Below, one piece after another: positions 23,955 to 32,034 of a stretch of 35,365 nt of DNA. The notes below the pieces were generated by a model. It was not told the DNA's origin, ran no database searches, and worked only from the letters and a program-made list of their open reading frames with translations. Positions within the stretch are counted from its first letter, which is position 1. Each line of letters starts with the position of its first letter. A program made the position numbers and the translations under genes. Origin of the DNA: a virus. The stretch lies in the UHGV virus genome UHGV-2010328. One strand, given 5' to 3'.

Positions 23955-25000
23955 TGAGCAGAAAAAATAAAAAAGTGCGCATGAGTTCACGCATTGATCT
24001 CGCTGATGCGCTCAGGAAAGAATCATCGCTCAGTGCATTCACATTTGATGGGCCTTATCGCCTGACCGGGCATGACCTGCTGGACAATATGTACTGTGCT
24101 GATAACGGGCGGTGGTATGAAACCCCGGTGGACTGGTACGGTCTGGCAAGAGCTGCCCGGCAAACGTCCTGGCATCAGTCTGCGCTTTACTTTAAGCGCA
24201 ATGTATTACTCGGTTGCTACATCCCGCACCCGCTGCTTTCCCGGCAGGATTTCTCGGCGCTGGCGCTGGACTGGTTTGTGTTCGGTAACGCATTCCTTGA
24301 GCTTCGGAGCAATATGCTCGGCGAACCGCTTAAATTACGGCACGCACTGGCGAAATACATGCGACGCGGAAGCGATCTTGAATCATGGTGGTATGTGCAG
24401 GATGGCAAGGACGCGTTCCAGTTTCGCCCTGGCAAAGTGTGCCACCTGATGAATCCGGACATTAACCAGGAAATTTACGGCATGCCGGAATATCTTGGCG
24501 CATTACTCTCGGCCAGCCTGTCTCATTCGGCGGACATGTTCAGAAAACTGTATTACGACAACGGATCCCACGCCGGGTGCATCATCTACATCGGTGCAGC
24601 GCAGGTAAACCGCGAAAGCATGGACTCCCTGAAAGAAACGTTACAGGGTGCGCGTGGTGGTGGTGCGTTTAAAAACGTGCTCATCCATGCGCCCAACGGG
24701 GGCAAAGAGGGGGTGCAAATTTTGCCGTTCCAGCAGATCACCGCAAAGGATGAGTTCATGAATGTTAAGGCGGCATCCCGTGATGATGTGCTGGCTGCGC
24801 ACCGCGTTCCGCCGCAACTGATGGGGGCGATGCCGGGCGAAAAAAGTGCGTTTGGTGATGTGGAGAAGGCCGCGCGGGTTTACGCAATTAACGAGCTGAT
24901 GCCCGTCATGGAGGCCATGAAGCACATCAATGACTGGCTTGGCGAAGAGGTGATCCGCTTTAACCCTTACGCACTGTTAGACACCCAGCCCACATCCTGA
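23954..25000 (+). CDS. Q: portal vertex protein Q (gpQ-like)
   Basis: 348 aa, downstream of P on the strand opposite to the capsid genes, as in P2. Confidence 0.85.
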   Translation: MSRKNKKVRMSSRIDLADALRKESSLSAFTFDGPYRLTGHDLLDNMYCADNGRWYETPVDWYGLARAARQTSWHQSALYFKRNVLLGCYIPHPLLSRQDFSALALDWFVFGNAFLELRSNMLGEPLKLRHALAKYMRRGSDLESWWYVQDGKDAFQFRPGKVCHLMNPDINQEIYGMPEYLGALLSASLSHSADMFRKLYYDNGSHAGCIIYIGAAQVNRESMDSLKETLQGARGGGAFKNVLIHAPNGGKEGVQILPFQQITAKDEFMNVKAASRDDVLAAHRVPPQLMGAMPGEKSAFGDVEKAARVYAINELMPVMEAMKHINDWLGEEVIRFNPYALLDTQPTS

Positions 25001-25451: not shown

Positions 25452-25744
25452 GTCAAAAAATTGCTACATGTTGAATATTGCAGGTTAGCTTTAAGTTAGT
25501 TTAACTAAAAATTTCAGTGAATCGGGCGAAGTGGAGCTGTGAGCATAAAATCCTTGTTCACTAAGCAACATCATCTCAGTACATATTTGAAGCTAGAGGG
25601 GGAGGTATAAAAAAGTGTTTGACGAATTTGATGGTTTCTGAATACGTTAATTTCTATGAGGCGGAGAGTGTATTTTTGCCTTTTTATGGGTGAGGGAAAG
25701 ATTACTCTGAATTCCGCATGTGGCGATTTTTATGCAGGTGCATG

Positions 25745-25780
25745 ATATAAGCAAAAGCCCGCCACATCTGGCGGGCTTCA
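25745..25780 (-). terminator. intrinsic terminator downstream of the ASCH-like gene
   Basis: Minus-strand hairpin agcccgcca / tggcgggct followed by a U-rich tract, about 55 nt past the stop at 25832. Confidence 0.6.
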
Positions 25781-25831
25781 GCGAAACGGTCCTTAAACGA
25801 TCATGCAGAACCATGCAGCAAAGTCATGCTC

Positions 25832-26209
25832 TTATCCGCGTATATACCTAAAGGACTGAGGTGGTACAGCGCCAGGTATCAATTCATTAAGTGGAATTGG
25901 AGTATCATAGCGCAGAGGGTTTTTTACTTCTATTGCGAATCCCTTGTCTCTTTCTGAAAAATATTCATCAAAAAAATCCCGCGTAATACCTGCATACTTT
26001 TTTGTCATATTCCATAATTCATCTGGCTGAGATGACAAAACCTTTTCAATTTCAAACTCACCAATTACCTTTCCGACGGGCATTGTTGCATAAATAATAA
26101 CCGCTCGGACTTCTTTGTTCCGAAAAATTGTCTTCCTGAATTCGAATTTTTTATATCCATTTAAAATGGATTCAGCGAACTCTGGTTTAATCGACAATAA
26201 AATTTTCAT
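25832..26209 (-). CDS. stand-alone ASCH/PUA-like domain protein (125 aa)
   Basis: MKILLSIKPEFAESILNGYKKFEFRK... matches the ASCH-type N-terminal motif. ATG 26209..26207 overlaps the upstream gene by 23 nt. AT-rich. Confidence 0.55.
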   Translation of the reverse strand: MKILLSIKPEFAESILNGYKKFEFRKTIFRNKEVRAVIIYATMPVGKVIGEFEIEKVLSSQPDELWNMTKKYAGITRDFFDEYFSERDKGFAIEVKNPLRYDTPIPLNELIPGAVPPQSFRYIRG

Positions 26210-27242
26210 TAACCTTTCCCGCGCTTAAAACAGCTTTGAAGTGAACATCACTTAACGTGAAGAACCCTGAATAGCTTGGAGTATAACCTAAAATACTCAA
26301 CAATTCATCTCTAATTATTCTTTTTTGCAAAGGGAAATTGTAAGTTAACTTAATTACATGTGGAGGATAACATCTGCTATAATAAGCATATAATTCTTCA
26401 TCAGAAAAAATACTGGCGCCTCCACAATAAGACTTAAACTCATCATATGATAAAAATTCTCGAATGTTTTTATACTCTTGTAATGTACAAACAGAAGTAA
26501 CCACCGACCGATATTTCGCCGCTCCCTGTCCATCTGTCGTTCGATAAATAATTATATTATCTCCTGGCTGAAGAAGCTCCATGCCTTTCATCGCGCCAAT
26601 ATATATCTTATGAATACTATTAGTATAAGTAACATCTTCTAAAATAGAATCATTTTCATTTTTTAAAATTGACTCCGGGAAAAGCCTTGAATGAAACTCA
26701 GGTTTAATGGCTAATAAAAAATTTCTTCCATTCATTTTTATCATAGGATAATTATTATAAAATGATGCTGCTGATGGCTTCCAGTTAAAATCCTTAAAGT
26801 AGACACCTTCACAACCGTTTTCCGTCTCAAGATTTTTTCTTGAACACAATTTAAAACCATAGCGTTCAAGTAAACGAATCAATCCTTGATGTTTGTCAAA
26901 GATAGTAACGTACACTTCCTGAATATCATGAGGCATTGCAAAGTCAAATATTTTTCTTACAAATCTCTCCCCCATTTTCGTTCCACGAGCATCAATTTTA
27001 AATGTTCCGCATTTAAGACGTTTTTTCATAGGGAAAGATGGGGTCATGTCATTTAATTCCTCATTTTCAATTTTGAGGTATAAAAAACCATCTATTTTCC
27101 CATAATCATCATAAGATACGTATGCTTTCTCATTTCTTTTCTTTAAGAACCAGCTTTCAAAAGTTGGGTAGTCATTTTTAAGCGAGTCAAAAAAAACATC
27201 TGAGAGGTCAACCTTCCCAAATTCGACATAACTAAGAGACAT
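26187..27242 (-). CDS. GNAT-like acetyltransferase fused to a C-terminal ASCH/PUA-like domain (351 aa)
   Basis: ATG 27242..27240 with AGGA RBS (ORF-track 5' extension rejected). N-terminal half has GNAT-like core motifs (ARGTKMGERFVRKIF ... EVYVTIFDKHQGLIRLLERYGFK); C-terminal half has ...FLLAIKPEFHSRLF... like the downstream ASCH-like protein. Domain assignment is by eye. Confidence 0.5.
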   Translation of the reverse strand: MSLSYVEFGKVDLSDVFFDSLKNDYPTFESWFLKKRNEKAYVSYDDYGKIDGFLYLKIENEELNDMTPSFPMKKRLKCGTFKIDARGTKMGERFVRKIFDFAMPHDIQEVYVTIFDKHQGLIRLLERYGFKLCSRKNLETENGCEGVYFKDFNWKPSAASFYNNYPMIKMNGRNFLLAIKPEFHSRLFPESILKNENDSILEDVTYTNSIHKIYIGAMKGMELLQPGDNIIIYRTTDGQGAAKYRSVVTSVCTLQEYKNIREFLSYDEFKSYCGGASIFSDEELYAYYSRCYPPHVIKLTYNFPLQKRIIRDELLSILGYTPSYSGFFTLSDVHFKAVLSAGKVNENFIVD

Positions 27243-27354
27243 TGTGCCATCCTTTTCAGTAGGTATTTTGCAAAAAACGTTACTGTATCTCAAAATATAT
27301 GTAAATAAACTTAGATCAAAAAAATGCTTACTAACGCTTTGTCTTACCGGGGCT

Positions 27355-27428
27355 GTGTGTGTCGAAATACTCGCTTAGTGGCAGGGTGTCAACTACATCT
27401 ACCTCTTCTGGTGCAATATCAGACTCTG
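27355..27428 (-). pseudogene. parM-derived remnant (about 72 bp, roughly 80% identical to parM 28399-28470)
   Basis: tgtgtcgaaatactcgct is identical to parM 28405-28422, with similarity continuing about 50 bp. Lies between parR and the GNAT gene with no intact reading frame. Confidence 0.5.
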
Positions 27429-27455
27429 CCCGGCGCAGAGTATTCCGACTGTTGG

Positions 27456-27767
27456 TCATTGAGGGAACATGGCCTGTATATTCTTTTTCATCTGTGTAAC
27501 GTTGTTATTCTCTGTATCCTGCTGTGGTGATTTATTTCGTGGCGTTGGTGTGAGCGGCTGACTGAATCCGCCTTCAGGCCATTCAGCCAGCCAGTAAGCA
27601 AAGGCAGGATCGGTTTTGATGAGTGCCAGTCCAGCCAGAAATGCCGCGCGTTGCGCGCGGCTGCGTTCGGAGGCTGGCAGGTTGTCGAGATAATTACACG
27701 CTTTCCGTTCACTCTTGACGGCTGCTGGCTTCAGATAGAAACTTATTCTTCTGGTTAATGTCGCCAT
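27456..27767 (-). CDS. parR: ParR/StbB-like partition adaptor protein
   Basis: ATG 27767..27765 with AGGAG RBS (ORF-track extension rejected); 103 aa, MATLTRRISFYLKPAAV...ERSRAQRAAFLAGLALI resembles R1 ParR. Immediately downstream of parM. Confidence 0.7.
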   Translation of the reverse strand: MATLTRRISFYLKPAAVKSERKACNYLDNLPASERSRAQRAAFLAGLALIKTDPAFAYWLAEWPEGGFSQPLTPTPRNKSPQQDTENNNVTQMKKNIQAMFPQ

Positions 27768-27771
27768 GGGG

Positions 27772-28731
27772 TTACTCCTTATCCATAGCGTACAGACCGT
27801 TAACCAGAGCAAACTGTGGCACCCCGTCCGCGATGAAAGTCGCATTAACTCCGCAGGCTTCGCGGATCGCGGGTGCCACAATCTCCGCCCCGCCACCGAC
27901 AACCATCACCCGCCCATACCCCGAAAAACCAGCCAGCGCGCGGATCACGCGTTGTTTCAGTGTTTCCTCCTTTTCACGAATAACTGCCATCAGGCTGGCG
28001 TAATGTGCGTTATTGTGGATGTGCTGGCGCAGCCAGGCTTCATCGTGGCGATGTTCGATAATGGTATTGGCGATGTGGTGGCTGGTACGCATACCGTTGG
28101 TGGCCATCACCGACAGAACGGCATCAGCCATCAGAGAAACGCCTACGTGTGGATCGCAAAACACCTGGCTGATACCTGCCAGTTGTCCCTGAACCTTTGC
28201 CACATCCAGCGTGGTTCCGCCTAAATCCACAATCAGCAGGGATTCAAACGGACTCATGTCAGCCAGTGCCTTAAAGCCAGCCGGAATGGATTCAGGCATA
28301 ACCCGTACGTTACGGATAGTGAATGCTTCGCCGTTCTGGTACTCCACCGGGCGTATGACGTTCGCTTTTTTGCGGTTGATGTTGGCCATGTCCGGTTGTG
28401 CGTTTGTGTCGAAATACTCGCTCAGTGGCAGGGTGACAACCACATCCACCTCCTGTGGCGTGATGCCTGATTTGACCAGCGCGTGATGAATGGCAATGAC
28501 ATTCACATCGCTGTACTGGTATTGCGTGTCGGTCGTCTGGACAAAGCGATCGCTGACCGGATCAAAACCATAGCGCACGCCATCAAGCATGTAGTTCGCG
28601 GGCTGCATGCCACCGAACGGCGCAGACCATTCCGATTTGAAGCTGTTCGGGCTGATGGCGTTGCGGCGTTCGCCGTTCTCAGTCCATGCCAGCTTGATGT
28701 TGGTGGAGCCGTCGTCGATACAAATTTTCAT
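27772..28731 (-). CDS. parM: ParM/StbA-like actin-type partition ATPase
   Basis: 319 aa, MKICIDDGSTNIKLAW...ISPNSFK...YSDVNVIAIHHAL...VMPESIPAG...DLGGTTLD...VVGGGAE; close to plasmid R1 ParM throughout by recollection. Confidence 0.85.
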   Translation of the reverse strand: MKICIDDGSTNIKLAWTENGERRNAISPNSFKSEWSAPFGGMQPANYMLDGVRYGFDPVSDRFVQTTDTQYQYSDVNVIAIHHALVKSGITPQEVDVVVTLPLSEYFDTNAQPDMANINRKKANVIRPVEYQNGEAFTIRNVRVMPESIPAGFKALADMSPFESLLIVDLGGTTLDVAKVQGQLAGISQVFCDPHVGVSLMADAVLSVMATNGMRTSHHIANTIIEHRHDEAWLRQHIHNNAHYASLMAVIREKEETLKQRVIRALAGFSGYGRVMVVGGGAEIVAPAIREACGVNATFIADGVPQFALVNGLYAMDKE

Positions 28732-28763: not shown

Positions 28764-28874
28764 TTACGGGATTTTTAAATCCCGCTTTTGCCTGTTTTGT
28801 GCGCGCTTCATATATCGCGGCGCGTTTTTTGCTCATTTACGGGTTTTGTGAATCCCGTTTCTGTCTGTTTTTTG
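28764..28874. repeat. two 38-bp direct repeats with internal dyad symmetry (ACGGGaTTTttAAATCCCG type) upstream of parM; candidate parC centromere/operator
   Basis: 28764-28801 ttacgggatttttaaatcccgcttttgcctgttttgtg and 28837-28874 ttacgggttttgtgaatcccgtttctgtctgttttttg, 73 bp apart. The first is intergenic; the second lies in the last codons of A. Confidence 0.45.
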
Positions 28875-31648
28875 TTTCCACTGGTCAGGCTACCCCGCAG
28901 CAGGTCTGCTTTGCGGCGGGCGCGTTCAGTGGTTTCACTGATTCTCTGTGCGTGCTCTGCGTCACGAATGGCGCGCAGCATGTCAGAAAGCACGGTAACG
29001 GGGGTTTTCATGGTGTTCTGGTCCTGCTGAAGTGTGGATGCCAGGTGTGCGGCGGCTTCGGGGTCTGATGCCCCCAGCTGTTCCAGATAGCTGGCGACCG
29101 GGTTATGGCGGATCTCCGTGCTGCTTACGCCGTGATTACGGCTCAGGCGCTGCCAGAGTTGCGTGATTCGGCTGTCCGGGCGGGTATCTGGTTTGCGTAC
29201 AATTTCAAATCCCTGCGGTGCAATGATGCTGCCGTCAACGTACAGACTGCCGCCCCGTAACAGGTGCAGCATCTGTTGTTCACCGATATGCAGGCCGAGA
29301 GATTCGGCAGACTCCCGCCATTCTTTAGCGAGTAACTCGTGGTTATCAGGCAAAGGTCGCGGCTGTTTGCGGCTCTGTGTCCAGTTCTGCATTTCATCGC
29401 TGCTGTTTTTTGCCTGTTTGTCACGAAGCGAACGCATCAGCGCCCGGCGTTCGTGCCGTTTCAGTGAGCGCATCCATTCATTTACTTCAACGCCGTCAGG
29501 AAGCTGCGGCCACGGTGCTGGCCGTTCTTCCGGCTGTTCTGTTCCGTTGTTGCTCGTTTCCTGTACACGGGGACAGTTATTGCCACGAGTCCAAGGGGCG
29601 GCAGGGCCGCCCTGAAGGTCAAAACCATTTTCGCGGGCGCCGTCTTCCGCTTCCGGTTTGCGTCTTACCAGCTTCCAGTTATCTGGATGCGTGCACACAC
29701 GGGAGGATTCCCCGATGAGCGGCGACCAGATCCCGTAAATCTGTACGCTCTGTTCGCCGTAATCATTCAGCTCATCTGCGAGGTCGTAGGCGGTGCGAAT
29801 CAGGTAGTCTTTGCGTGGAACAAGTACGCCACCCTGTTTCTCAATGTAGGTGGCAAAACATCCGGCATCAGCGGCAGCGAGTACCGCGTCCATTGCGTCA
29901 TCCTTCAGCCGTTGCGGACCTTCCGGGTTGCGTGCCATCTGGCTGGCAAGGCGGCGCAGTTCACGCCACACCTGACGGGAGGGGATACCAAAGAACTGGA
30001 ACTGGCGGACCCGGTGAAGGCGCGCCCAGCCGATGGCGCGTTCCACGCTCTCGGCCATTGATTTTCCGGTTTCGTGGTCAACGCGTGGCTTGCCCGTTTT
30101 CGGGTCGATGCCATCTACGGCGCGGCTGTCCAGGTTTTTTCCGATGTAGGTCGCGATATAGCTGGTTGGTGTGCCTTTTGAGCCGTCGACATACTCCGCC
30201 TTAAAGCGCGGAGTAATATCATTGCCCAGCTCGTGGCGGTCTTCCTGAATGGCAATATCGCGGGTGATGGCCACGATGCTGTCGATTTCTTCCGGATGAG
30301 CAAAGACCATCATATGCCAGTGCACGGTGCCGTCATGGTGAGGCTCCACCGTGCGGATGCCATACCAGCGAAGACCGTCGCGGTTCAGTTTTTTGCGGAC
30401 CGCCGCAAAAAACGTGTTAACCAGGTAATCGCTGGAGTCGCGCATGGTGGCCCCGTTCCATTTGGGGTTCGGATGACCGTTCTCTGTTGTGGCGTGGTAT
30501 TTTGACGGGCAGGTGACAGTCAGAAACACCGCTTTGTCACCACGGGCTTCGGCCAGAAGTTCCAGCCCCTTCATGGTGGCCATCATTTCTGCCTTACGGT
30601 GAACCGGGTTACTTACTCCCGCGTAATACACTGTCTCGAGATCAATCGTGAAGCCGTCTTCGTTTTCCAGTTCGAAGCTCTTCAGGAAGTCGCGGGTTTT
30701 CTCGCGCTGTGCGCGAAACTCGCTTAACGCGTCCTGGCTCAGATAGGGTGATGTTTTTCTGGAAACCAGACAGGCGGCACGGAGCTGTTCTTCCCGCCAC
30801 TCGCAACGTAACAGCCACAGTTTGTGTTTCCACCATTCCGCACAGGTCAGGCGAAGGATGGCCCCCGGCAGCAGCTCCGTATCCGGTGCGTTCTTCCGGT
30901 CTTTGTCCGTTCTCAGTGCTTCGTAATGCGGCGGCATGGTGTGCAGATGTAACGCCATGCGGGCCAGCATCTGATACGCCTTCAGCGCAATTTTCATGGT
31001 CAGCTCGCCATCGGTCGCGCCAAAGTTATCGCAGAGTTTTTCGAAGGTGCTGCTGAACATCGCCGCCGTCATGGTGGCCAGCGTCTGTATCTGGTGTTTG
31101 TTGAGCTGCGGCAGGTAAAGCAAATCGTCCAGGCGTTCGCGTCCGGCAAGGGAGCGATAACCCGGTGTCAGCCAGCGGTGATCGGTGCGGTCCAGACGTT
31201 CGAATATTTTGCGCAGGGTTCCGCGCGCGTAGCGTTCAGCCTGCCAGCTCTTTTTGCCTTTCTGGCGATCGGCTTCCTGTTTTTTGCGCAGGAAAGAGAG
31301 GTGGCGGCTCAGAGGTTCACGCAGATAAACGGGAAGCACCTTCAGTGTGGCAAAAGCACGGGCCACCGGGTCTTGTTCTGTTGCCTGACGCTTATTGATG
31401 ATGTTCTGTGCCAGCTTTTCACGCTGTCCGGCTTCCTCAAGGGATGCCATGAGTCTTTTACCCACGGTGGATTGTGCGAAAAAGGCTTCCTCCTTCGCTT
31501 CCTGTTCTTCCAGAGCCTTTTTGTCTGCCTCAAGGTAGTAACGGATGGCGCGTTGCAGGTCGGTTTCAGTTTCCTGCCTGTGCTCCGTAAATCTGGCCGG
31601 ATCAATGGCTGGTCGTGGTTCATTCCAGCTCCATGCAAACTCACTCAT
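28808..31648 (-). CDS. A: replication initiation protein A (rolling-circle nickase, gpA-like)
   Basis: ATG 31648..31646 overlaps the upstream stop (ATGA). 946 aa with HUH-type motif (GTVHWHMMVFAH) and paired tyrosines YIATY typical of P2 A. Longer than P2 A (about 760 aa). Confidence 0.85.
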   Translation of the reverse strand: MSEFAWSWNEPRPAIDPARFTEHRQETETDLQRAIRYYLEADKKALEEQEAKEEAFFAQSTVGKRLMASLEEAGQREKLAQNIINKRQATEQDPVARAFATLKVLPVYLREPLSRHLSFLRKKQEADRQKGKKSWQAERYARGTLRKIFERLDRTDHRWLTPGYRSLAGRERLDDLLYLPQLNKHQIQTLATMTAAMFSSTFEKLCDNFGATDGELTMKIALKAYQMLARMALHLHTMPPHYEALRTDKDRKNAPDTELLPGAILRLTCAEWWKHKLWLLRCEWREEQLRAACLVSRKTSPYLSQDALSEFRAQREKTRDFLKSFELENEDGFTIDLETVYYAGVSNPVHRKAEMMATMKGLELLAEARGDKAVFLTVTCPSKYHATTENGHPNPKWNGATMRDSSDYLVNTFFAAVRKKLNRDGLRWYGIRTVEPHHDGTVHWHMMVFAHPEEIDSIVAITRDIAIQEDRHELGNDITPRFKAEYVDGSKGTPTSYIATYIGKNLDSRAVDGIDPKTGKPRVDHETGKSMAESVERAIGWARLHRVRQFQFFGIPSRQVWRELRRLASQMARNPEGPQRLKDDAMDAVLAAADAGCFATYIEKQGGVLVPRKDYLIRTAYDLADELNDYGEQSVQIYGIWSPLIGESSRVCTHPDNWKLVRRKPEAEDGARENGFDLQGGPAAPWTRGNNCPRVQETSNNGTEQPEERPAPWPQLPDGVEVNEWMRSLKRHERRALMRSLRDKQAKNSSDEMQNWTQSRKQPRPLPDNHELLAKEWRESAESLGLHIGEQQMLHLLRGGSLYVDGSIIAPQGFEIVRKPDTRPDSRITQLWQRLSRNHGVSSTEIRHNPVASYLEQLGASDPEAAAHLASTLQQDQNTMKTPVTVLSDMLRAIRDAEHAQRISETTERARRKADLLRGSLTSGNKKQTETGFTKPVNEQKTRRDI

Positions 31649-32034
31649 GGCTGGTATCCCGTCACGCGCTGCCACTCCTGCAAGAAGATGGTGGAAAGGC
31701 GGTTAAATTCAGCGGTGTATTCACTCAGCGAGGCACACCCGCCAGCAGTGCGATGCGCCAGCATTGCCGCAAATACGGAGGCCGGGGAGTCGTAATACGC
31801 CAGCAGTGATTCGCCGTGCGGTGTCAGGCAGTGCAACGCCAGTCCGTGTGGTGTGAAGTCCACGCGGTAGCAGTCGTCTACTGTGAAATAAAGGGTATCC
31901 ACATTCTCCGGTTTTGTAGTGCGTGCTCTGTTGTCACGACCACGGATGTAAAGATCAAATAATCCTTGGAGAACGGGAGCCAGACGGGTGTCCTGTGTGC
32001 GCACCCATCTTGTGAAGTCATGAGCGTCAATCAT
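31645..32034 (-). CDS. hypothetical early protein (immediately upstream of A)
   Basis: 129-aa ORF translationally coupled to A. No recognisable motif. Confidence 0.5.
   Translation of the reverse strand: MIDAHDFTRWVRTQDTRLAPVLQGLFDLYIRGRDNRARTTKPENVDTLYFTVDDCYRVDFTPHGLALHCLTPHGESLLAYYDSPASVFAAMLAHRTAGGCASLSEYTAEFNRLSTIFLQEWQRVTGYQP

Follow-up and report, generated by a model that had tools for sequence, protein, structure and literature searches.

The 110-nt interval between parR and a two-gene GNAT/ASCH cassette in the virus genome UHGV-2010328 probably holds a non-functional relic of a second, divergent parM copy, left as a recombination scar in the gpA-gpQ region of a P2-family prophage. 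The window analysed here is the whole 35,365-nt stretch of this genome. A sequence-only reading had described the segment as an orphan parM fragment, a scar of recombination beside the GNAT/ASCH cassette, and this description was borne out: the similarity to parM lies far above chance, parMR loci do not share the segment as a conserved element, and the mosaic breakpoints agree with it.

Genetic context

Judged by its closest phages, the window is a prophage of the P88 / Xuanwuvirus type in the P2 family (family Peduoviridae). The nearest records are relatives of phage P88 and Citrobacter phage Shae_phiSM, and a near-identical prophage was found in E. coli 2015C-3121 and STEC2018-553. The order of genes on the minus strand is gpA-like, parM, parR, the relic, a gene for a 351-aa protein and a gene for a 125-aa ASCH protein, and the relic is located between the gpA-like gene and the portal gene, as follows.

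28808-31675, minus strand: gpA-like replication endonuclease
27772-28731, minus strand: resident parM, intact, 319 aa; sampled alleles of the family share 94.5-100% DNA identity
27456-27767, minus strand: parR, intact, 103 aa, Plasmid_stab_B (Pfam E 1.8e-26)
27346-27455, minus strand: interval holding the parM' relic, 110 nt, from the parR stop to the cassette boundary
25718-27345, minus strand: imported two-gene cassette with its own promoter region, 91% identity to SopEPhi orf12/orf13
26187-27242, minus strand: cassette gene A, 351 aa, GNAT-like N-terminus
25832-26209, minus strand: cassette gene B, ASCH, 125 aa
23954-25000, plus strand: portal gene (gpQ)

In P2-like phages the interval from gpA to the portal gene is a hotspot for variable cargo, which is often anti-phage (Rousset et al. 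2022, PMC9122126). Pseudogenes are present in nearly all P2-like prophages, about 90% of them being very small intergenic sequences (NAR 2026, PMC13586616), and the small intergenic pseudogenes of the P2 and P4 defence loci have been read as 'remnants of an intense process of recombination' (PMC13586616).

Some further properties of the prophage were recorded. Immediately downstream of the portal gene (24975-24993) the window lacks about 630 bp that include a gene for a 174-aa hypothetical protein; this segment is kept in 2015C-3121 and in several other prophage copies (L004 3068-3699, L008 3895-4526), which makes it a second presence/absence polymorphism in the hotspot. The locus L006 (NZ_JBQPOM010000071.1), labelled Vagococcus sp. 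WN89Y, is a P88-like prophage with 92-93% identity to the window over more than 9 kb; the assembly behind this Gram-positive assignment probably contains contamination or bears a wrong label. An approximate P2 cos sequence gave no match in the window; the phage's own cos may differ from it.

Similarity to parM and the two pieces of the relic

Local alignment of 27300-27470 against parM placed 27355-27436 on resident parM positions 28402-28482 with a score of 46, compared with a mean of 10.1 (sd 1.3) and a maximum of 17 in 500 shuffles. At a z-score of about 27 chance similarity is ruled out, and the parM-like similarity noticed earlier from the sequence is real. Over the span first proposed, 27355-27428, the ungapped identity is 57/74 (77%), and it rises to 83% to resident parM in a 64-nt core. 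The 18-bp perfect match was likewise recovered, the longest exact run being 18 nt, TGTGTCGAAATACTCGCT, at 27358-27375. The offset between relic and parM is 1047 nt, or 349 codons, and the two share strand and codon phase.

While the similarity stood, its extent had been underestimated, since a second piece at 27431-27448 is also derived from parM. The two pieces are numbered in the order of the parM codons to which they correspond.

27431-27448, minus strand: piece 1, TCGGAATACTCTGCGCCG, parM codons 33-38 (resident 28618-28635)
27352-27436, minus strand: piece 2, parM codons about 84-111 (resident 28399-28483), including the 18-bp run

Together, recognisable parM-like sequence extends over 27352-27449, about 98 of the 110 nt, and the end bases 27346-27351 and 27450-27455 are weakly parM-like. 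Piece 2 has 72% identity over ParM residues 87-111 (tblastn). Piece 1 agrees with resident parM in 16/18 nt and with several other alleles in 17-18/20 nt; its score was reached in 2/5000 shuffles, and in 1/5000 when the target was limited to the collinear part of parM. The pieces are collinear and share a strand, and they are joined through a GCGCYG microhomology (GCGCCG/GCGCTG) that is found at both places in parM. On the simplest reading, the joint would have arisen by a microhomology-mediated internal deletion that took out about 47 codons. The Salmonella copy L009 has the two pieces in one frame, SEYSAPGRSDIAPEEVDVVATLPLSEYFDTH, which follows ParM 33-39 and 84-110 codon for codon, and the window differs from it by one extra base located exactly at the gap in the alignment of the window with parM. 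The single-frame reading of L009 confirms that the relic consists of two pieces with an internal deletion between them.

As is characteristic of a gene remnant, the significant similarity is to a small fraction of an otherwise full-length gene. The relic retains at most 34 of the 319 ParM codons and none of the actin-fold ATP-binding motifs, and the resident ParM's N-terminal DDGSTNIK, DLGGTT and GGGAE have no counterpart in it. Nor was a second complete type II par locus (parC-parM-parR) present: the relic is without a parR or parC of its own and is flanked directly by the stop codon of the resident parR and by the cassette. A tblastn search disclosed no further ParM-like sequence at the loci examined. 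With the defining features that were tested absent, the relic does not qualify as a functional member of the ParM family.

Source and age of the relic

Eight distinct parM alleles were compared with the 64-nt core, and its identity to every one of them is 80-84%; among themselves these alleles share 92-98% over those 64 nt and 94.5-100% over the whole gene. As the relic is equidistant from all of these alleles, it is not a recent copy of the resident parM. The differences between relic and resident gene fall 3/2/8 on codon positions 1/2/3 (p = 0.035), and this bias to the third position indicates that most of the divergence arose while the source was still protein-coding. We infer that the source was a parM outside the sampled allele range and not the resident gene.

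The alternative of a recent local duplicate of resident parM that has since decayed would account for the distance of 1047 nt from the homologous part of that gene on the same strand and in the same phase. It is nonetheless highly improbable. A recent duplicate is not expected to be 80-84% identical to every sampled allele when the alleles themselves differ by 2-8% in the same 64 nt, and the placement of 8 of the 13 differences at third codon positions is unexpected for a dead copy. Moreover, relics that lie on backbones with different parM alleles resemble each other and not the parM of their own backbone.

Among the best 120 ParM clusters from a set of 5.8 billion proteins, none came nearer to the relic than the P88-like family does (18/24 residues). 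For the parM of E. coli locus L032, a divergent allele (81% aa identity), DNA identity to the relic is only 72%. Exact-pattern scans of IMG/VR for a donor or a less-eroded relic returned only one near-identical prophage copy, and pattern scans of the JGI metagenomes returned none.

The cassette and the mosaic breakpoints

The cassette next to the relic corresponds over the full profile length to the PADLOC candidate system PDC-M11 (component A, E 7.8e-131; component B, E 5.7e-51), and with A and B adjacent it is regarded as a putative defence system. At the Pfam cut-offs, the GNAT match falls below and the ASCH match above. From published work on the P2 hotspot, candidate defence cargo would be expected there. 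A promoter scan gave a single promoter-like site on the minus strand, at 27293-27265, in the cassette's own upstream region.

Homology to the SopEPhi-type cassette ends exactly at 27345 in 4/4 independent loci (L002, L022-L024), 6 nt from the last clearly parM-like base of the relic. Its other end is at 25718 in L002 and L022-L023; L024 is cut by a contig end, its cassette homology spanning 26749-27345. Homology to Shae_phiSM stops at 25714, which is 29 nt into the gene that occupies this position in that phage. On the par side, six par-bearing comparators were mapped (L001, L003, L005-L007, L009), and in all of them backbone homology resumes only at 27569-27574, inside parR. The lineage-specific stretch therefore extends over 27346-27573 (228 nt) and comprises the relic together with the 3' allele of parR.

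27456-27573, minus strand: lineage-specific 3' half of parR, ending ...NIQAMFPQ-stop, always linked to the relic and the cassette

Neither other E. coli genomes nor phages or plasmids gave a DNA match to this parR 3' allele, and in a survey of ParR it was confined to the P0004 cluster. The parR of the window ends in FPQ-TGA and the other full-length alleles retrieved end in FPE; the 5' joint of the relic may lie in the last codon of parR. Both ends of the relic fall at mosaic breakpoints, and it occurs in a single cargo configuration. A mosaic map that places the relic between two breakpoints agrees with its interpretation as a scar.

Several observations were made on the neighbouring genes. 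In P88-like prophages ParR is hypervariable in its C-terminal linker (about residues 65-95), of which there are dozens of unrelated alleles (clusters P0004-P0060), and conserved in its N-terminal DNA-binding part and in its last 8 residues (KKNIQxxFPE); ParM is 97-99% identical, and the break in DNA homology is at one point (27574) common to all comparators. The PDC-M11 cassette itself occurs in two genera of P2-family phages with differing flanks. In L011 (6218-7272, E. coli GCA_002459075.1) the 351-aa PDC-M11A gene is split into ORFs of 32 and 286 aa, by which the cassette is apparently inactivated, and the relic is unchanged there. A weak Rfam match to the Pseudomonas rnk leader at 25745-25837 on the minus strand (35 bits against a gathering score of 55, E 0.002) is most likely the hairpin after the ASCH gene (AAAGCCCGCCA...TGGCGGGCT).

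Distribution and linkage

The relic was present in 21/21 loci that carry both parR and the cassette; these loci come from E. coli, Salmonella Enteritidis, metagenome assemblies and read-archive assemblies. It was found in 0/8 par loci with other cargo in place of the cassette and in 0/4 loci that have the cassette but no par genes. A role as a conserved element of parMR loci, which would have spoken against a scar, is thereby ruled out, as among the loci examined the relic is confined to those with parR and the cassette.

Among 5426 complete E. coli genomes, 1280 matched the 307-nt query, and in two of them the match covered at least 80% of it; both of these carry the relic. These same two are also the only ones of the 5426 to carry the cassette, and the other best matches listed were all inside annotated parM genes. 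Two matches named 'ParM domain-containing protein' (H67 and H65) are actually full-length parM genes. A ParR-based search of GTDB genomes gave only three loci, none of them with the relic. In the survey of ParR, the parR 3' allele was accompanied on every contig by the relic and by at least the beginning of the first cassette gene; two such contigs end inside that gene.

The module formed by the 3' half of parR, the relic and the cassette is 96.5-100% identical among L009, L010, L018 and the window, whereas the 5' half of parR, parM and gpA of the same backbones differ from the window by 1.5-9%. Near identity of the module on differing backbones indicates that it spreads among prophages as a unit, by homologous recombination in its flanks, and the relic can be used as a marker for tracing it.

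The 42-codon open reading frame

The segment had been described as having no intact reading frame. This is not correct, as it sits inside an ORF of 42 codons that reads ParM in frame.

27331-27459, minus strand: 42-codon ORF, read here as accidental, its ATG overlapping the parR stop (ATGA)

The middle of this ORF follows ParM from about residue 88 to 110 (DIAPEEVDVVDTLPLSEYFDTH against GITPQEVDVVVTLPLSEYFDTN), its N-terminal 12 codons are piece 1 read out of frame, and its last 5 codons and the stop are supplied by the cassette. By its composition the ORF is a chimera of three unrelated joints. In public databases it stands as protein cluster P0001, called on 314 contigs and named 'ParM domain-containing' in nr. 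The match to Pfam StbA_N (PF06406) covers profile positions 87-111 of 158 and is below the cut-off of 24.6 both for the ORF of the window (22.9 bits) and for that of the Salmonella copy (24.1 bits). The ATG lacks an upstream Shine-Dalgarno sequence. Five variants of the relic were distinguished.

Window type: codon 99 GAC
L009 (Salmonella): -1 nt, codon 99 GCT
L025-L031: codon 93 GTA, codon 99 ATC, C-to-T in piece 1
L027: as the L025-L031 type, with one further substitution
L010: +6 nt tandem duplication

In L009 no ORF of at least 20 codons with an ATG, GTG or TTG start covers the relic, and the ORF given for it in the database begins at a non-canonical codon within parR. Thus no reading frame is conserved among the copies of the relic, and in the window itself pieces 1 and 2 are in different frames. 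The cassette genes are free of indels relative to the window over about 1.4 kb (L009, L010, L018 and L004/L013 compared). In these respects the relic copies behave like non-coding DNA, and we take the 42-codon ORF to be an accident of the joints. Against a scar it may be held that 4/5 variants keep an ORF of 42-44 codons coupled to parR and that the indel of 6 nt preserves the frame. Between copies the relic has also not diverged more than the genes beside it, although the count of mismatches, 2 in 113 nt of the relic compared with 27 in 1056 nt of the neighbouring genes, is too small to show either decay or constraint.

It has also to be weighed whether the ORF is translated, by coupling to parR via the ATGA, into a ParM-derived micro-protein that modulates ParM filaments or ParR. 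The overlap of its start with the parR stop is of the kind that such coupling would use, the ORF has been called widely under a ParM name, the 6-nt insertion keeps it in frame, and codon 99 differs in three lineages (GAC, GCT, ATC) from the GTC of parM. A product of this kind is however very unlikely. The shift of -1 nt in the Salmonella copy leaves the ParM-like frame without a canonical start, both termini of the putative protein have an origin other than in-frame ParM, a Shine-Dalgarno sequence is missing, and the Pfam score remains under the cut-off. The stretch retained corresponds to one buried beta-strand and a turn of the actin fold and is unlikely to fold alone, and the V99D exchange of the window places a charge in this buried strand. 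For annotation purposes, the 42-codon 'ParM domain-containing protein' is to be treated as a pseudogene fragment and not as a gene.

Two side observations concern this region. Codon 99 (27384-27386) is GAC in the window, GCT in L009 and ATC in L010 and L025-L031, where every functional parM has GTC, and the base substitutions between the main relic lineages all pile up in this codon; the change creates the palindrome GTTGAC in the window and GTAGTTGCTAC in L009. This concentration may reflect a template-switch hotspot or selection on the residue. In L004 (NZ_CP027340.1) the RefSeq locus tags run from C6N25_RS22495 to RS22485, RS22490 being skipped exactly at the relic; it seems that a feature was called there earlier and then withdrawn, and the 42-aa ORF is still listed by other sources.

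Inverted repeat and predicted stem-loop

The relic contains an inverted repeat, whose arms are named in gene orientation.

27438-27449: 5' arm, GTCGGAATACTC on the minus strand, overlapping piece 1
27361-27372: 3' arm, GAGTATTTCGAC on the minus strand, inside piece 2

The 12-nt arms lie 65 nt apart and are complementary at 11/12 positions (92%), with one G.U pair in addition, a complementarity reached in 0/300 shuffles. The corresponding arms of resident parM pair at 8/12 positions, and the three differences of piece 1 from parM all create pairing with the other arm. The minimum-energy RNA fold uses this stem and two inner helices, with a z-score of only -2.0; a fold as good was reached by 9/200 shuffles. 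The five variants retain all 19 predicted pairs, the single change in a paired column being C-G to U.G (the C-to-T of the L025-L031 type). The indels and the changes in codons 93 and 99 are in the apical part, and the extra substitution of L027 is outside the structure. Compensatory double changes do not occur among these five near-identical variants. The relic gave no match in Rfam, a scan of 27100-27900 for intrinsic terminators found none, and the stem (27361-27449) is followed by ACACACAGCCCC and by no U-tract. When six comparators lacking the cassette were folded, five had a strong hairpin within about 10-60 nt of the parR stop.

These data bear on the proposal that the relic has been co-opted as an RNA element, in which the 12-bp stem, of 19 pairs with the inner helices, lies at the 3' end of the parMR transcript in place of the GC-rich hairpin found after parR in other P88-like phages and acts as a stabiliser or as a partial barrier to read-through before the defence cassette. 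The proposal would draw on the inverted repeat unmatched in shuffled sequences, on the three differences of piece 1 that all add pairing, on the retention of every pair in the five variants and on the post-parR hairpin of most comparators. Still, it is considered unlikely, given that the fold as a whole is equalled by some shuffles, that the U-tract and a predicted terminator are lacking, that no covariation is seen in so narrow a set of variants, and that template switching in replication could perfect a quasi-palindrome without selection. The inverted repeat would fit mutational perfecting of a quasi-palindrome after the deletion had brought the arms closer, and it would also fit selection for a 3' stem-loop. 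A full scenario of a new job for the relic, which we hold to be quite improbable, would be that the native parR hairpin was lost in the cargo swap and that the weak 8/12 quasi-palindrome inherited from parM became, through three substitutions, the 12-bp stem of a 19-pair stem-loop, by which the 3' end of the parMR mRNA is defined or protected and PDC-M11 is insulated from par transcription. If true, a gene remnant at a phage defence hotspot would have been turned into a regulatory RNA.

Proposed origin of the scar

Of the two origins offered by the sequence-only reading, truncation of a second par locus fits the data, as does a variant in which short stretches of parM were copied in. The other, in which the cassette arrived by recombination within parM-like sequence, does not: it would place the cassette inside parM and not after an intact parR. 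With the upstream parM and parR intact, recombination of this kind is rejected as the sole origin, and it would fit only if the second copy already existed.

For the relic as the remains of a second, divergent parM, the following course is proposed. A 5'-truncated parM' could have been placed after parR by unequal or illegitimate exchange, or the parM stretches could have entered as templated filler at the junction by template switching; the two are nearly balanced, the exchange being slightly favoured. Later the microhomology-mediated deletion would have removed the internal codons, and arrival of the cassette would have cut the parM' copy at about codon 111-114. The relic would then have no part in partition or defence. 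This order of events, and the preference for a truncated second copy over copied-in filler, is what we infer from the arrangement of the joints.

Comparison with known systems

The type II partition locus parMRC of plasmid R1 is the reference for the resident genes, with the Pfam families StbA_N/ParM_N and Plasmid_stab_B. The resident parM-parR pair shares its architecture and domains, and the relic is homologous to ParM 33-38 and 84-111. Unlike the R1 locus, the relic lacks the ATP-binding motifs and has neither a parC nor its own parR.

Templated filler or template-switch junctions, and the correction of quasi-palindromes, are mechanisms of replication-based rearrangement. In common with templated filler, the relic is made of short collinear stretches from a gene about 1 kb away, placed exactly at an illegitimate junction, and in common with template switching it has the GCGCYG microhomology at the switch point and an inverted repeat that has gone from 8/12 in parM to 11/12. 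It differs from recent templated filler in that the stretches are 16-20% diverged from every known template, and this divergence excludes a recent copy from the resident gene.

The closest counterpart of the cassette is orf12/orf13 of SopEPhi, a Salmonella Felsduovirus (AY319521), where the same cassette and its promoter-proximal sequence are found with 91% identity over 25718-27345. Unlike in the window, the SopEPhi-type cassette comes after a DinI-like gene with its hairpin, and both par genes and relic are absent.

The relic is a small intergenic remnant of a kind already known at the P2-family hotspot. Like the pseudogene remnants of P2-like prophages (PMC9122126, PMC13586616), it is a very short piece of a gene at the gpA-gpQ site, beside a swapped-in candidate defence cassette and bounded by mosaic breakpoints. 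It differs from the remnants of PMC13586616 in its source, the adjacent partition gene parM, which belongs neither to the defence genes nor to the P2 core genes that this paper names, and ParM is mentioned neither in PMC9122126 nor in PMC13586616. It further differs in consisting of two pieces with an internal deletion and in belonging to a fixed module with one parR 3' allele and PDC-M11. By itself the relic matters little, but it represents a clean and fully mapped case in which turnover of gpA-gpQ cargo leaves short remnants, and it shows that such a remnant can become fused with one parR 3' allele and PDC-M11 into a module that moves between prophages of E. coli and Salmonella.
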